Source of the DNA: a virus
Taxonomy: Duplodnaviria > Heunggongvirae > Uroviricota > Caudoviricetes
IMG/VR virus record: IMGVR_UViG_2778261179_000007
Coordinates: 1-4,163 of that record
DNA: 4,163 bases
Reading direction: 5' to 3' (one strand)
A program made the position numbers and the translations under genes. Shown in pieces: positions 1 through 4,163 of the stretch. The notes beneath the pieces were generated by a model that was given only the letters and a program-made list of their open reading frames with translations, was not told the origin of the DNA and made no database searches. Position 1 is the first letter of the stretch. The number at the start of each line of letters is the position of its first letter.

Positions 1-1760
1 GCCTCATTGCGTCGCTTTTTGCTGTCCCACAGTATTTTTTTCCTGCCATCCACCCATTTTTCGACCTGCTCTTCAGCAGTCAGCTGCTGCGCTTCGGTCA
101 GATCAAAAATATCCGGGTTATTCGGGAAGTGAACGGCACCGGGAAGCGGTTCATCCCCTTCCGGCGTCAGTGTGAAGCGGTTATAAATCTGCTCTTTCGC
201 GGTATCCGTACCGATTTCGGTAAGGTAAACCCCGTTTTTGTTTCGCTTACGTGGCATGCTGGCCACCGGCTTTCCGTAGACGGATGCCCCTTTAATGGGG
301 ATCACCCGGAACAGCCCATGTTTTTTCGAGCGTTCATACACAATGGTCGGGTCAATCCCGCCAGTATCCCAGCAGATACGGGATATCGACATTTCTGCAC
401 CATTCCGGCGGGTATAGGTTTTATTGATGGCCTCATCCACACGCAGCAGCGTCTGTTCATCGTCGTGGCGGCCCATAATAATCTGCCGGTCAATCAGCCA
501 GCTTTCCTCACCCGGCCCCCATCCCCATACGCGCATTTCGTAGCGGTCCAGCTGGGAGTCGATACCGGCGGTCAGGTAAGCCACACGGTCAGGAACGGGC
601 GCTGAATAATGCTCTTTCCGCTCTGCCATCACTTCAGCATCCGGACGTTCGCCAATTTTCGCCTCCCACGTCTCACCGAGCGTGGTGTTTACGAAGGTTT
701 TACGTTTTCCCGTATCCCCTTTCGTTTTCATCCAGTCTTTGACAATCTGCACCCAGGTGGTGAACGGGCTGTACGCTGTCCAGATGTGAAAGGTCACACT
801 GTCCGGCGGCTCAATCTCTTCACCGGATGACGAAAACCAGAGAATGCCATCACGGGTCCAGATCCCGGTCTTTTCGCAGATATAACGGGCATCAGTGAAG
901 TCCAGCTCCTGCTGGCGGATGACGCAGGCATTATGCTCGCAGAGATAAAACACGCTGGAGGGGTCATCCGGCGTCCATTTGAGGCCAAACGGCGTCTCTT
1001 TGTCGCCAAATTTAAGATACTGCTCCTCCCCGCAGTGCGGGCAGGCAACATGAAAACGCATAAAATGCGGGGATTCACTGGCTGCACGCTCAATCTGGCA
1101 GGTGCCTCTCACTTTGGGCGTGGAGCCACGGATGGACTTTGGCCAGACCGAGCCTTCAATACGCTTGTCGCCCAGGAACGTCGGAGAGCCTTCCTGTTCA
1201 ATATCCTCATCAAAGGCAGCAAGTTCATCATAACCCGCCACATCCACCGACTTTTCACGGTAGTTTTTTGCCGCTTTACCGCCCAGGCACCAGAAGCCAC
1301 GACCATTGGTGAAACGCTTCATGGTGAGCGTGTTATCCCGGTGCTTTTTGCCATACCACGGGGCCAGCGCCAGCAGCGACGGAATATCACGAATAGTCGG
1401 CTCAACGTGGGTTTTCATGAAGTTCTCGGCATCACCATCCGTCGGCAACCAGATAAGGGTGTTACGCTGTTTATGCTCTATGAAGTAGGCATAAACACCC
1501 AGCAGCATTTTGGAATAACCGACACGGGCAGACTTCACCACATTCACCTCACGGATGTAGTCGCTGCCCATCGCATTCATGATGGCCCGCTGAAAGGGCA
1601 GTGTTTCCCAGCGCCCTTCCTGGTATGCGGATTCTTTCGGGAGATAGTAATTAGCATCCGCCCATTCAACGGCGGTCTGTGGCTCCGGCCTGAACAGGGC
1701 ACGAAGCCCGGCGCGGACAAAATGCCGCAGCCTGTCAACCTGACTGTTCGATATATTCAC
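1..1760 (-). CDS. A: Terminase large subunit (lambda gpA-like), N-terminal ~586 codons; C-terminal end runs off the window at position 1
   Basis: Reverse-complement translation from GTG (complement of 1758-1760) reads MNISNSQVDRLRHFVRAGLRALFRPEPQTAVEWADANYYLPKESAYQEGRWETLPFQRAIMNAMGSDYIREVNVVKSARVGYSKMLLGVYAYFIEHKQRNTLIWLPT..., matching the lambda gpA N-terminus as I recall it. The first ~340 nt of the window, reverse-complemented, also match the distal part of lambda A. The ORF track lists no minus-strand ORF in this frame, which is expected for a reading frame that exits the window. The GTG start overlaps the end of Nu1 by 26 nt, as in lambda. Confidence 0.93.
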   Translation of the reverse strand, partial: MNISNSQVDRLRHFVRAGLRALFRPEPQTAVEWADANYYLPKESAYQEGRWETLPFQRAIMNAMGSDYIREVNVVKSARVGYSKMLLGVYAYFIEHKQRNTLIWLPTDGDAENFMKTHVEPTIRDIPSLLALAPWYGKKHRDNTLTMKRFTNGRGFWCLGGKAAKNYREKSVDVAGYDELAAFDEDIEQEGSPTFLGDKRIEGSVWPKSIRGSTPKVRGTCQIERAASESPHFMRFHVACPHCGEEQYLKFGDKETPFGLKWTPDDPSSVFYLCEHNACVIRQQELDFTDARYICEKTGIWTRDGILWFSSSGEEIEPPDSVTFHIWTAYSPFTTWVQIVKDWMKTKGDTGKRKTFVNTTLGETWEAKIGERPDAEVMAERKEHYSAPVPDRVAYLTAGIDSQLDRYEMRVWGWGPGEESWLIDRQIIMGRHDDEQTLLRVDEAINKTYTRRNGAEMSISRICWDTGGIDPTIVYERSKKHGLFRVIPIKGASVYGKPVASMPRKRNKNGVYLTEIGTDTAKEQIYNRFTLTPEGDEPLPGAVHFPNNPDIFDLTEAQQLTAEEQVEKWVDGRKKILWDSKKRRNE

Positions 1761-2280
1761 TCAGCAACCCCGGTATCAGTTCATCCAGCGCGGCTGCTTT
1801 GTTCATGGCTTTGATGATATCCCGTTTCAGGAAATCAATATGCCGGTTATCCAGCTCAGGAAAACGTCGCTGCACCGACAGAGGAATACCGTCGAGAATA
1901 CTGGATATTTCCCTTGCTATACGCGACAGCACGAAAGTACAGAATGCGGTTTCCACCACTTCAGCCGATTCTTTGGCATTTTTCAGTTCCTGCGCCGTCG
2001 CCTGAGCACGAGTCAGGCGATGGCGCTCAAATTCAAGTGTTCCTGGGTGAAGATCTGCCTCGCTGGCCTGCCGCAGTTCTTCAACTTCCCGGCGCAGCTT
2101 TTCGTTCTCAATTTCAGCATCCCTTTCGGCATACCATTTTATGACGGCGGCAGAGTCATAAAGCACCTCATTACCCTTGCCACCGCCTCGCAGAACGGGC
2201 ATTCCCTGTTCCTGCCAGTTCTGAATGGTACGGATACTCGCACCGAAAATGTCAGCCAGCTGCTTTTTGTTGACTTCCAT
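1735..2280 (-). CDS. nu1: Terminase small subunit (lambda Nu1-like), 181 aa, N-terminal winged helix-turn-helix that binds the cosB R elements
   Basis: ORF-track protein MEVNKKQLADIFGASIRTIQNWQEQGMPVLRGGGKGNEVLYDSAAVIKWYAERDAEIENEKLRREVEELRQ... is near-identical to lambda Nu1 as recalled, with a handful of conservative substitutions. Length matches (181 aa). It sits immediately downstream of cosB, as in lambda. Confidence 0.95.
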   Translation of the reverse strand: MEVNKKQLADIFGASIRTIQNWQEQGMPVLRGGGKGNEVLYDSAAVIKWYAERDAEIENEKLRREVEELRQASEADLHPGTLEFERHRLTRAQATAQELKNAKESAEVVETAFCTFVLSRIAREISSILDGIPLSVQRRFPELDNRHIDFLKRDIIKAMNKAAALDELIPGLLSEYIEQSG

Positions 2281-2301
2281 TGTTCATTCCACGGACAAAA
2301 A

Positions 2302-2419
2302 CAGAGAAAGGAAACGACAGAGGCCAAAAAGCCCGTTTTCAGCACCTGTCGTTTCCTTTCTTTTCAGGGGGTGTTTTAAATAAAAACATTAAGTTACGAC
2401 GAAGAAGAACGGAAACGCC
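2302..2419 (-). promoter_or_regulatory. cosB: cosB: Nu1-binding elements R1 (~2302-2320), R2 (~2343-2360), R3 (~2400-2419) and the intervening AT-rich IHF site I1 (~2370-2398)
   Basis: Three copies of the CGTTTCC / GGAAACG core are visible: gaaaggaaacgacag (R1), cacctgtcgtttcctttc (R2) and cgaagaagaacggaaacgcc (R3). R2 is inverted relative to R1 and R3. An AT-rich stretch gtgttttaaataaaaacattaagttacgac lies between R2 and R3. Order and spacing match lambda cosB as recalled. Confidence 0.8.
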
Positions 2420-2457
2420 TTAAACCGGAAAATTTTCATAAATAGCGAAAACCCGCG

Positions 2458-2469
2458 CGCCTTCCGCCC
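2458..2469 (-). other. cosN: cosN cohesive-end 12-mer; minus-strand sequence GGGCGGAAGGCG (lambda: GGGCGGCGACCT)
   Basis: Plus strand 2458-2469 is cgccttccgccc, whose reverse complement is GGGCGGAAGGCG. Both flanks (..CTACG on one side, CGCGGGTTTTCGC on the other) align to lambda. Five of the six positions in the 3' half of the 12-mer differ from lambda as I recall it. Confidence 0.7.
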
Positions 2470-2758
2470 CGTAGCCTGCCGGATCGCCGGAAAGGACCCG
2501 CAAAGGTGAGAATAATTATCACTTGCATTAATATCCGGCTTCTTCCACCATCGCACCGGACGGGCGACTATGAGGGACAAAATCGCGCACCATAAACGCG
2601 GTAAAAACCCGGTGTGCATCGTTTTTGATTATTCCCGCACACTCGCGCAGAAGGAGTTCCCCGTCGGGCTACGGTCATGGTTAATGCGGAAATACGGCGA
2701 CGATGCAGCGCGGTATTTAATGTGCGACCACGGTCGCAAACGAGAAACAAAGAGATTT

Positions 2759-3070
2759 TTATGCTACAGAGGAACAAGCTGGCGGGTAATTCAGCGTAGT
2801 GAATACCTGCATCTCCATCTTGTATGCGTAATGATACTCAGCAGTTGCTCCAGCAGACGCTTTCCAGCCAGGAAGCATCAAAATAGCATCAGCACAACGA
2901 AGCATTGCAAAGCAAATATCCATGTATTCACGTTGTGTCAGACCATTAGGCAAAGTGGCTGGATTCAAGACAGAGTGACCATGTCGTGACAAACGATCTG
3001 CCTCTTTATTAAAGGCGTCACGATTAAAGTTCTCATATCCCGTCATTGGCCCGGCAATATAAATTTTCAT
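2759..3070 (-). CDS. Small (103 aa) nucleoside 2-deoxyribosyltransferase-like protein (DUF4406-type); accessory gene between Rz and cos
   Basis: ORF-track protein MKIYIAGPMTGYENFNRDAFNKEADRLSRHGHSVLNPATLPNGLTQREYMDICFAMLRCADAILMLPGWKASAGATAEYHYAYKMEMQVFTTLNYPPACSSVA. The N-terminal KIYIAGP loop and the C-terminal block AILMLPGW..SAGATAEYHYA resemble the N-terminal loop and the catalytic-Glu motif (here Glu78) of nucleoside 2-deoxyribosyltransferase / Rcl-type enzymes as I recall them. Same strand as the late genes, with a weak Shine-Dalgarno (GGATAGTGA before ATG). GC content is about 45% in four of its five 60-nt blocks that I counted, against about 58-62% in two 60-nt blocks sampled from A. 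The family assignment is from memory, not a search. Confidence 0.65.
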   Translation of the reverse strand: MKIYIAGPMTGYENFNRDAFNKEADRLSRHGHSVLNPATLPNGLTQREYMDICFAMLRCADAILMLPGWKASAGATAEYHYAYKMEMQVFTTLNYPPACSSVA

Positions 3071-3111
3071 TCACTATCCAACAAATTGAGCTCGTTTTTG
3101 ATACAGAGGGA

Positions 3112-3570
3112 TTAATTCAGGCATTGCGTCTTGATGTATTCCTGCAAGTAGTTAACCTGCGCAGTTATCCTGTCGATCCCACTTCGGAGACGGTAATAAT
3201 TGAGTTCAGCATCTGCTGTAAGTCTTGGGCTTTCTCCATTGCCCATGCCGCTGGCTCCGGTCGTTGACTTTGCACAGGTGGCGGCGACTTGCAGGCGCTT
3301 ACGGCCAGCGGCAACATCAGCGCGCAGAGTTTCATTTTCAGCTTTCGCATTGGCTAATTCTCTCGAGTACTTTGCATCGAGCGCAGCAACATCACGCTGA
3401 CGCTGCTGCATGTCAGCGATGGTGGCGATCGCCTTCTCCAGTTCACTGGCCTTGTTATCGCGCTGCTCCTTGTAGGCGATTGCGTTATCACGGTAATGAT
3501 TAACAGCCAATGACAGGCAGACGATGATGCAGATAACCAGAGCGGAGATAATCGCGGTTACTCTGCTCAT
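3112..3570 (-). CDS. Rz: Rz, inner-membrane spanin subunit (i-spanin), 152 aa
   Basis: Translation [93 protein letters not shown]... matches lambda Rz as recalled, with an N-terminal transmembrane helix and a coiled-coil periplasmic domain. I place the start at the ATG (complement of 3568-3570) that overlaps the R stop as ATGA, not at the upstream GTG (3582) used by the ORF track. Confidence 0.9.
3165..3350 (-). CDS. Rz1: Rz1, outer-membrane lipoprotein spanin subunit (o-spanin), embedded in the +1 frame of Rz
   Basis: 61-aa [64 protein letters not shown]. It has a signal peptide with lipobox (..AVSA|C, Cys20) followed by a proline-rich mature region, and lies entirely inside Rz in another frame. 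This is the classic lambda Rz/Rz1 arrangement and the sequence pattern is similar to lambda Rz1. Confidence 0.85.
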
Positions 3571-4064
3571 TGTTGCCCCCACAAACAGACTTCACGCTCA
3601 ATCTCACGACGAGTCATCAGGCCTTTCCATTGCTTACCGCCAGCGTATATCCAGCGACGTAGCTGGTCACATGCGCCTTTAATATCGCCCTGGTTTATTT
3701 TGCGAAGAAGCGTCGATGTTCTGAAATTGCCAGCACCCACGTTGTAGACGAACGAGTAAAGAGCGCCGCGCGTTGTTTCCGGTATATCGACTTTGATGTA
3801 CGGGTTAATTTGTCTGGCAACCGTGGCAAGGTCTTTATTCAGGAGGGCTTTGCATTCTGCTTTGGTATACGTTTTACCGAGCATGATGTCTTTTCCGGTG
3901 TGTCCGTGACATACAGTCCATACGCCAACGATATCTTTGTATGGTACGTAGCTGACACCTTCCAGACCATCGTTACCACTTGGGCCAGTGATTAACACAG
4001 ATGCTATGGCAATAGCCCCGCCACCAATAGCAGCAGCAACGGCTTTTCGTAATGATGGAGGCAT
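3567..4064 (-). CDS. R: SAR endolysin (phage 21 R-type lysozyme, T4-lysozyme-like glycosidase family), 165 aa
   Basis: Translation [61 protein letters not shown]... is essentially the phage 21 endolysin as I recall it. It has a Gly/Ala-rich N-terminal signal-anchor-release helix and the catalytic triad E35-D44-T50. A GAGGTG Shine-Dalgarno precedes the ATG, and the start overlaps the holin stop (TAATG). Confidence 0.95.
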
Positions 4065-4163
4065 TATTCACCTCTCGCAGCCTTTCTTCTGTCTTCTCTG
4101 ATTTTGAAGTACAGATTCGTCAGGTAAGTCAGAAAGCCCAGAACCAGACTTCCCAGCACACCA
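4064..4163 (-). CDS. S: Holin, phage 21 S-type pinholin, C-terminal 32 codons only (5' end outside the window)
   Basis: Reverse complement of 4064-4162 translates to [32 protein letters not shown], matching the C-terminus of the phage 21 pinholin as recalled. The TAA stop overlaps the R start codon by 1 nt. Confidence 0.85.

Follow-up and report, generated by a model that had tools for sequence, protein, structure and literature searches.

Which activity is encoded by the single small gene that separates the lysis cassette from the cohesive-end site cos in a fragment of a tailed-phage genome, and is this gene passing cargo or a long-standing resident? The locus lies within a stretch of 4,163 nucleotides (positions 1 to 4,163 of the IMG/VR virus record IMGVR_UViG_2778261179_000007, Caudoviricetes; hereafter the window). 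An earlier note, made from the sequence alone, had placed one 103-residue accessory gene between the spanin gene Rz and cos, with a product resembling nucleoside 2'-deoxyribosyltransferases (NDTs) and Rcl (DNPH1)-type N-glycosidases. The gene is indeed present: an open reading frame (ORF) with an ATG start at 2759-3070 on the minus strand, flanked by Rz (3112-3582) and the equivalent of cosN (2458-2469), encodes 103 amino acids (MKIYIAGPMTG...SAGATAEYHYA...). The predicted IYIAGP loop corresponds to residues 3-8 and the AEYHYA context to residues 77-82, with E78 as the motif glutamate. Our analysis assigns the product to the family DUF4406 and supports a minimal NDT-type fold; the gene reads as an old resident of N15-type phages, and its enzymatic role can be proposed only tentatively. 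The gene, its key residues and the spacer in front of it are:

2759..3070, minus strand: DUF4406 gene, 103 aa, orthologue of N15 gene 57, phiKO2 gp58 and PY54 ORF64, with a predicted minimal NDT-superfamily fold.
Key residues of the DUF4406 protein: Y4, the G7-P8-M9-T10-G11 loop, N16, F20, N36-P37, Y49, C53, W69, S72, G74 and E78.
3071..3111, minus strand: 41-nt spacer between the Rz stop and the DUF4406 start, with a GGA Shine-Dalgarno-like element at 3077-3079, 6 nt 5' of the ATG.

The 103-codon ORF is a real gene, far beyond chance, as documented by its Pfam and PHROG matches, its homologue counts and the excess of silent over replacement differences. The protein matches Pfam DUF4406 (PF14359) with E=2.5e-34 and 118 bits against a cut-off of 22, residues 1-90 aligning with profile positions 1-90 of 91, and PHROG 355 with E=1.4e-44, and a word-index search retrieved 254 homologues. 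The proportions of nonsynonymous (pN) and synonymous (pS) differences are given in place of the ratio of the substitution rates (dN/dS) because synonymous sites are saturated: pS of the window allele versus the N15 and phiKO2 orthologues is 0.80-0.87 and pN 0.075-0.09, and among the three alleles together the values are 0.79-0.87 and 0.05-0.09, respectively. Compared with the common allele of PhiR46_1, YDC107_1 and pZ1323HEC0355-3, which is recorded in RefSeq as WP_001555423.1 (DUF4406 domain-containing protein), the sole difference is Gln88 (codon 2807-2809) for Pro88, located in a variable column beyond the last helix.

DUF4406 is a very large and mostly phage-borne family with a clear catalytic signature. 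It comprises 19,475 cluster representatives (50% identity) at E<=1e-3 and 7,973 at E<=1e-10, and it is present in 556 phage records, mainly of Vibrio, Mycobacterium, Gordonia and Arthrobacter phages. The residues that are invariant in 78 diverse members (G7, F20, P37, Y49, S72, G74 and E78) are all found in the window protein. Sub-threshold Pfam matches (PF05014, DUF1937 and PF15891) all bear NDT-like names, and PF05014, the family of NDTs proper, scores 18.5 bits, below its gathering cut-off of 28.8; NCBIfam contains no match to the window protein. The family assignment itself is already public, as DUF4406 in RefSeq and more loosely as 'nucleoside 2-deoxyribosyltransferase', the label of PHROG 355 and phiKO2 gp58. 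Our literature search found no functional study of DUF4406/PF14359, and the mentions of DUF4406 that it returned are incidental. A Pfam scan for a second domain in 38 longer family members (167-358 aa) found none; their extensions may be gene-calling artefacts or unrecognised domains.

The structural evidence points in the direction that the earlier note had proposed. The AlphaFold2 model, which is based on 56 homologues, has a predicted local distance difference test (pLDDT) score of 94 and a predicted template modelling score (pTM) of 0.87, with four strands and three helices within 91 residues and a disordered 12-residue C-terminal tail of low pLDDT. The predicted model exhibits the Rossmann-like alpha/beta fold with parallel sheet of the NDT superfamily, and a Foldseek search of the PDB returned almost exclusively NDTs, MilB, BcmB and DNPH1 at template modelling (TM) scores of ~0.7, with the T. 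brucei NDT (TbNDT) at rank 1. A phmmer search of the PDB with the single protein found nothing, and a narrow family profile only reached E about 0.1; the broader profile of 78 diverse members retrieved TbNDT (E=3.1e-6) and the L. mexicana NDT (LmNDT; 8.6e-4). Individual residues were mapped with hmmsearch and hhalign versus the family profile, and the sequences of human DNPH1 and the L. leichmannii NDT (LlNDT) were verified against PDB chains. The equivalent positions are:

Tyr4: LlNDT Tyr7, DNPH1 Tyr24.
Cys53: LlNDT Asp72, DNPH1 Asp80.
Ser72: LlNDT Asp92, DNPH1 Ser98.
Gly74: LlNDT Gly94, DNPH1 Gly100.
Glu78: LlNDT Glu98, DNPH1 Glu104, and also the Glu of TbNDT, BlsM and BcmB.

The stretch S72-A-G74-A-T-A-E78 is in register with S98-L-G-V-G-Y-E104 of DNPH1, whose chain 8qhq with bound hydroxymethyl-deoxyuridine monophosphate (hmdUMP) has Gln at position 104, and the counterpart of Ser72 in BlsM and BcmB is the Ser of 'SPGTHVE' and 'SPGTHIE', respectively. 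The column of Tyr4, the triad tyrosine at the end of strand 1, contains Y in 71/78 and F in 6/78 members. Profile searches, alignment and model accordingly place the protein in the NDT superfamily and support an NDT/Rcl-type fold with Glu78 at the predicted nucleophile position, at the start of the helix that follows the xGxxxE loop, as the earlier note had suggested. In these alignments the Ser-x-Gly-x-x-x-Glu motif is shown to have the register of DNPH1 and the cytidine monophosphate (CMP) N-glycosidases, and not that of the Asp-x-Gly-x-x-x-Glu motif of nucleoside transferases. NDTs hold the 5'-OH of their substrate by Asp or Asn, whereas nucleotide hydrolases have a small uncharged residue at this position (PMC12884076), and since Ser72 is invariant at the 5'-OH-binding position, the same rule indicates a 5'-phosphorylated substrate. 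The resemblance to NDTs is thus a partial one: fold, Glu78 and Tyr4 agree, but the triad Asp is replaced by Cys53 and the 5'-OH-binding Asp by Ser72, and the C-terminal third is missing.

The genomic context of DUF4406 in other phages adds a link to nucleotide metabolism. Gp170 of the Mycobacterium phage Baka is a fusion of DUF4406 with a MazG/PRA-PH-like pyrophosphatase domain, the names of BFVD fold neighbours include 'dATP/dGTP diphosphohydrolase domain protein', and in the nin region of one lambdoid phage a PF04447 dATP/dGTP pyrophosphohydrolase is encoded three genes downstream of DUF4406. A phage precedent is provided by DmtZ, an NDT-family enzyme of Z-genome phages, which hydrolyses deoxyadenosine monophosphate (dAMP) and in many cases forms a fusion with a dUTPase-like pyrophosphatase (NAR 2026, PMC12884076). 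A second association concerns DNA methylation. Gene 57 of N15 overlaps gene 58, which encodes a C5-cytosine DNA methyltransferase, by 20 nt (4234-5542 of the N15 locus examined), a DUF4406 member of a metagenomic prophage overlaps a Dam-type methyltransferase by 4 nt, and a DNA methyltransferase gene is located 5' of the lysis cassette in N15, phiKO2, PY54 and PhiR46_1. The two overlaps hint at a possible functional coupling of DUF4406 with DNA methylation.

The reading that we favour, while holding it only tentatively, is that of a late-expressed nucleoside-5'-monophosphate N-glycosidase with Glu78 as nucleophile. The enzyme would bind a nucleoside 5'-monophosphate, whose phosphate may be held by Ser72, Gly74 and the G7-P8-M9-T10-G11 loop. 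Glu78 would attack C1' and release the base via a covalent sugar-enzyme intermediate that is resolved by water, so that the protein would act as a hydrolase (N-glycosidase) rather than as a base-exchanging transferase. Its role may be to remove or recycle a particular ribo- or deoxynucleoside monophosphate ((d)NMP) during phage DNA synthesis, downstream of deoxynucleoside triphosphate (dNTP) pyrophosphatases where these are present. The fusion and linkage of DUF4406 to dNTP pyrophosphatases in other phages, together with the DmtZ precedent, support this nucleotide-hydrolase reading.

Several observations weigh against this proposal. One concerns the catalytic triad; the NDT superfamily is defined by Tyr/Asp(Asn)/Glu (PMC12884076). 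Both hhalign alignments place Cys53 in the Asp/Asn column, where 50 of the 78 members have C, 12 have D and 6 have G, and conservation of the nearby D51 is confined to the enterobacterial subgroup and does not extend to the whole family. The C-terminal third of NDT and DNPH1 is absent, as the structured part ends at residue 91 and the structural matches have 125-165 aa; in NDT and DNPH1 enzymes the C-terminal segment helps to complete the active site of the neighbouring subunit. If the protein is catalytic, its leaving-group activation would have to differ from that of DNPH1 and NDT, with Cys53 replacing the general-acid Asp. The hhalign comparisons with single sequences are weak (E about 0.1), and the mapping rests on motif register plus fold. 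The 4.2-kb window shows neither a pyrophosphatase gene nor any other gene of nucleotide metabolism, and most other phages place the gene in early (replication, nin, ea) regions and not in the late operon, so that late timing, as in the window, is unusual for a function linked to replication. In lambdoid and P22-like prophages that integrate, for example, DUF4406 is found in early accessory regions, namely after DnaT/P or DnaB, between DUF977 and DUF4752, or in ea, where its translation is often coupled to that of the neighbouring gene. Finally, the literature search found no assay of any DUF4406 member.

The obvious competitor is a true nucleoside 2'-deoxyribosyltransferase that exchanges bases between deoxynucleosides for salvage. 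This is the name used by PHROG 355 and many GenBank records, the best PDB matches by sequence and by Foldseek are transferases (TbNDT, E=3.1e-6 and rank 1), and the N-terminal IYIAGP is identical in TbNDT and LmNDT. We nevertheless regard this activity as unlikely: the annotation names rest on homology only, the PF05014 score of 18.5 stays under the cut-off of 28.8, the family has an invariant Ser72 instead of the Asp that binds the 5'-OH (D92 of LlNDT, in TbNDT the D of 'DCGTAFE'), a Cys stands at the Asp/Asn position of the triad, and the C-terminal elements of NDTs are absent. The Cys could be reconciled with substrates whose leaving group is good enough to dispense with a general acid, as in TIR-type glycohydrolases, and the protein might then cleave or sequester a nicotinamide adenine dinucleotide (NAD)-derived or other nucleotide immune signal, or NAD+ or nicotinamide mononucleotide (NMN) themselves, as a counter-defence enzyme or sponge. 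Such a role appears improbable. In the structure search NDT, MilB and DUF1937 outscore any TIR domain, the PADLOC defence models including the retron NDT effector yielded no family at E<=1, and our literature search yielded no anti-defence report. Moreover, the fusion partners are dNTP pyrophosphatases and not immune-related domains, and the conservation at a fixed place in all N15-type phages resembles a housekeeping phage function.

Somewhat further down the scale stands an activity modelled on DmtZ, either as a phosphodeoxyribosyltransferase that transfers deoxyribose 5-phosphate (dR5P) from a canonical deoxynucleoside monophosphate (dNMP) to a non-canonical base, or in the clearance of methylated dNMPs in concert with phage methyltransferases. 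DmtZ is the phage precedent, and the methyltransferase overlaps in N15 and in the metagenomic prophage, as well as the methyltransferase genes ahead of the lysis cassette, would fit. We consider it decidedly improbable, as neither PurZ nor other genes of a base-modification pathway occur in the contexts examined, the window and most contexts lack the methyltransferase linkage, and the fold match to DmtZ is no more than distant (Ghobes protein, E=7.4e-4, TM 0.57). To our knowledge, substituted bases have not been reported for N15-type phages either. Least probable is a non-catalytic nucleotide-binding or regulatory protein, acting for example in plasmid-prophage maintenance via the adjacent partition site. 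The partition-like palindrome just downstream of the gene, the incomplete triad and the very small size of the protein speak for it, but Glu, Ser and Tyr are invariant or nearly so at the catalytic positions across thousands of divergent members, among them integrating prophages and lytic actinophages without a partition system. A bolder extension of the N-glycosidase proposal, which we think unlikely to hold, is that DUF4406 represents a distinct minimal class (Glu78, Tyr4 and Cys for Asp at position 53) acting on substrates with an activated leaving group, such as NAD-derived or alkylated or methylated nucleotides. If true, the family would supply temperate phages and phage-plasmids with a nucleotide-pool sanitiser tied to DNA methyltransferases or with a counter-defence against nucleotide-based immunity, which would explain its retention in every N15-type phage.

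The closest known proteins share some features with the DUF4406 protein and differ from it in others. DNPH1/Rcl has D80 in place of Cys53, is ~50 residues longer at the C-terminus and is hit by hhalign with an E of 0.08, which is not significant. MilB, BcmB and BlsM, the CMP and hydroxymethyl-CMP N-glycosidases of antibiotic biosynthesis, only reach E values of 0.11-2, are longer and possess extra base-recognition elements. The NDTs of L. leichmannii, T. brucei, L. mexicana and C. thermalis share the IYIAGP start, the aligned Glu and the core fold (best E value for TbNDT, as given above), but they have an Asp for the 5'-OH instead of Ser72, an Asp or Asn in the triad instead of Cys53 and a C-terminal region, and their family PF05014 is sub-threshold here. 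DmtZ is likewise a phage NDT-superfamily enzyme acting on a dNMP, and it is frequently fused with, or encoded next to, a dNTP pyrophosphatase, just as DUF4406 in other phages is fused or linked to MazG-like and dATP/dGTP pyrophosphatases; unlike the window protein DmtZ has ~145 aa, five strands and a Tyr/Asn/Glu triad, and it is tied to PurZ0 phages, whose pathway is not present here. DUF1937 (PDB 1t1j, from structural genomics) is a separate, sub-threshold Pfam family with a likewise unassigned function and adds no mechanism. The conservation in telomere phage-plasmids, the linkage to pyrophosphatases and methyltransferases and the Cys for the canonical Asp make DUF4406 a well-defined biochemical target, to which the hydrolysis of dAMP by DmtZ adds weight, and N15 or the inducible phage PhiR46_1 would be a tractable knockout system. 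Nothing new is established about the window sequence as such, and the N15 genome record already lists the orthologue as gene 57. Only two points are mildly unexpected, namely that Cys takes the place of the Asp and that N15-type phage-plasmids universally retain the gene.

This retention bears on the second part of our question, the accessory nature of the gene. In 5426 complete E. coli genomes, 38 carry the allele and 1398 carry most of the window, and because of this disparity the DUF4406 gene is accessory relative to lambda-like prophages. The best matches of the window are 46-48-kb plasmids and N15-type Ravinvirus phages (YDC107_1, PhiR46_1, pCAVP367-48; pZ1323HEC0355-3). A DUF4406 orthologue with 66-99% identity (tblastn intersection) is present in 13/13 distinct enterobacterial protelomerase phages of the phage collection, namely N15, MStein-2023a, PhiR46_1, YDC107_1, phiKO2, KpLi5, NAR688, 48ST307, 020009, Kpn74, Kpn_R1, PY54 and P840. 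Two separate counts in PLSDB gave 191 plasmids with DUF4406 at >=80% identity and 226 plasmids with the TelN protelomerase. The designation as accessory cargo fits the E. coli carriers of the R-Rz-cos-Nu1-A module, among which the gene is rare, but hardly the protelomerase phages. The earlier note had named ubiquity in the phage group as an argument against an accessory gene, and within the N15-type group such ubiquity is largely what we found, while lambda-like phages hold bor in the slot.

The closest named equivalents are N15 gp57, phiKO2 gp58 and PY54 ORF64, with 82%, 84% and 66% identity to the window protein, respectively. In all three phages, which were examined in detail, the gene directly follows the holin-lysozyme-Rz cassette in the same orientation near the right end and before cos, as in the window, whereas the genes beyond it vary: the slot of N15 additionally contains gp56, the C5 DNA methyltransferase and gp59, those of phiKO2 and PY54 contain HNH and other genes, and the slot of the window holds nothing more. 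The window also differs from N15, phiKO2 and PY54 in its lysis and packaging modules, which are of other types. The same segment also turns up in a few lambdoid prophages on chromosomes, whose head modules are unrelated; this is ordinary phage mosaicism. As side observations, DUF4406 homologues with 57-63% identity occur on many ~80-95 kb plasmids of E. coli, Salmonella and Shigella and in phage D6, and 353/364 of the plasmid matches are non-mobilizable; the ~80-95 kb carriers are taken to be P1/D6-like phage-plasmids on plasmid size and the D6 match alone.

The nucleotide composition had been regarded as a sign of separate acquisition. The guanine-plus-cytosine (GC) content of the gene, estimated at about 45%, is 44.2% (38.5% at third codon positions, GC3), but the 58-62% attributed to terminase does not hold: the part of the large subunit gene terL present in the window has 54.5% overall, and two 200-nt blocks alone reach 59-59.5%. 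The other neighbours have 51.1% (Nu1), 52.2% (Rz) and 49.2% (R). Among the orthologues the GC content is 51% in N15, 54% in phiKO2 and 44% in PY54, compared with 44% in the window allele. Because synonymous sites are saturated versus N15 and phiKO2, the gene is to be read as an old resident and not as a recent pick-up, and the low GC content, a peculiarity of this allele, suggests that alleles were exchanged between related phages and not that the gene was newly acquired. The scenario of a recent accessory acquisition is thus only partly supported.

The genes around DUF4406 form a single run on the minus strand that comprises the holin end, the endolysin, Rz/Rz1, DUF4406, ~290 nt of non-coding DNA, cos, Nu1 and the start of terL. 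The neighbours are:

3567..4064, minus strand: endolysin R, an RrrD-type phage lysozyme (Pfam Phage_lysozyme, 1.6e-45).
3112..3582, minus strand: Rz spanin gene (Pfam Phage_lysis, 5.6e-41; PHROG 13), with the likely true ATG at 3570, overlapping the R stop.
3165-3350, minus strand: Rz1, embedded in Rz (Pfam, 2.7e-20).
1735..2280, minus strand: lambda-type terminase small subunit Nu1, the first gene after cos (Pfam Phage_Nu1, 2.2e-96).
1..1738, minus strand: 5' part of the lambda A-type terminase large subunit gene, running off the window (open frame plus annotated homologues).

As had been noted, the gene points in the same direction as the late genes: it is encoded on the minus strand like R and Rz, whereas bor has the opposite orientation. 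A consensus scan, the only method applied here, revealed no promoter-like or terminator-like sites on its strand in the flanking region 2740-3120. The simplest reading is that the DUF4406 gene is co-transcribed with the late (lysis) genes, because it lies 41 nt from the Rz stop on the same strand and is not bracketed by a promoter- or terminator-like site. Two further ORFs, 2570-2989 (plus strand, antisense, 139 aa) and 2568-2777 (minus strand, 69 aa), were not taken as genes; both are without a Pfam match.

Two short elements belong to the region between the DUF4406 gene and cos:

2722..2739, plus strand: GTGCGACCACGGTCGCAA, a partition-site-like palindrome with a 17/18 match to the 'putative plasmid partitioning site' of phiKO2 (0.01 expected by chance).
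2458..2469, minus strand: GGGCGGAAGGCG, the cosN-equivalent 12-mer, located by alignment to the lambda-like phage mEp332, which ends the slot.

The phiKO2 record annotates its 'putative plasmid partitioning site' twice, and the palindrome lies just after the gene in both cases, ~20 nt 3' of the DUF4406 stop in the window and 16 nt in phiKO2. Its core GCGACCACGGTCGC recurs in YDC107_1, PhiR46_1, pCAVP367-48, pZ1323HEC0355-3 and N15. The match to the partition site suggests that the window derives from a linear plasmid-prophage lineage. The same core is labelled as a terminator stem-loop in N15 and is present even in one chromosomal lambdoid prophage. The cohesive-end equivalent GGGCGGAAGGCG differs from that of lambda, GGGCGGCGACCT, in 5 of the last 6 bases, and the N15 sequence GGGCGGCGTCCG differs too; the cosB/Nu1 flank of the cosN equivalent is lambda-like despite the differing 12-mer.

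In mEp332, one of the phages that share the cos/Nu1 region with the window, the same slot is occupied by the unrelated lipoprotein gene bor on the opposite strand, as the earlier note had stated for lambda, together with a DUF3950 (ylcI-like) gene. The homology between the window and mEp332 stops at ~2711, which marks the putative recombination joint of the slot. The window and lambda-like phages have about 175 bp (2537-2711) between cos and DUF4406 in common, and the DUF3950 gene of mEp332 is carried by a 330-bp insertion within this shared cos-side segment. Plasmid pZ1323HEC0355-3 is 99% identical to the window across the slot. A 73-aa 'hypothetical protein' annotated on this plasmid is probably not a gene: it has no Pfam match, and its span contains a 1-bp indel relative to the window (at window position 2651). 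PhiR46_1, YDC107_1, pCAVP367-48 and a chromosomal prophage harbor two extra co-oriented genes between DUF4406 and cos, encoding proteins of 286 aa and 149 aa, which have no Pfam match and are absent from the window. Two partition-site cores, 220 bp apart, are located between DUF4406 and the first of these extra genes.

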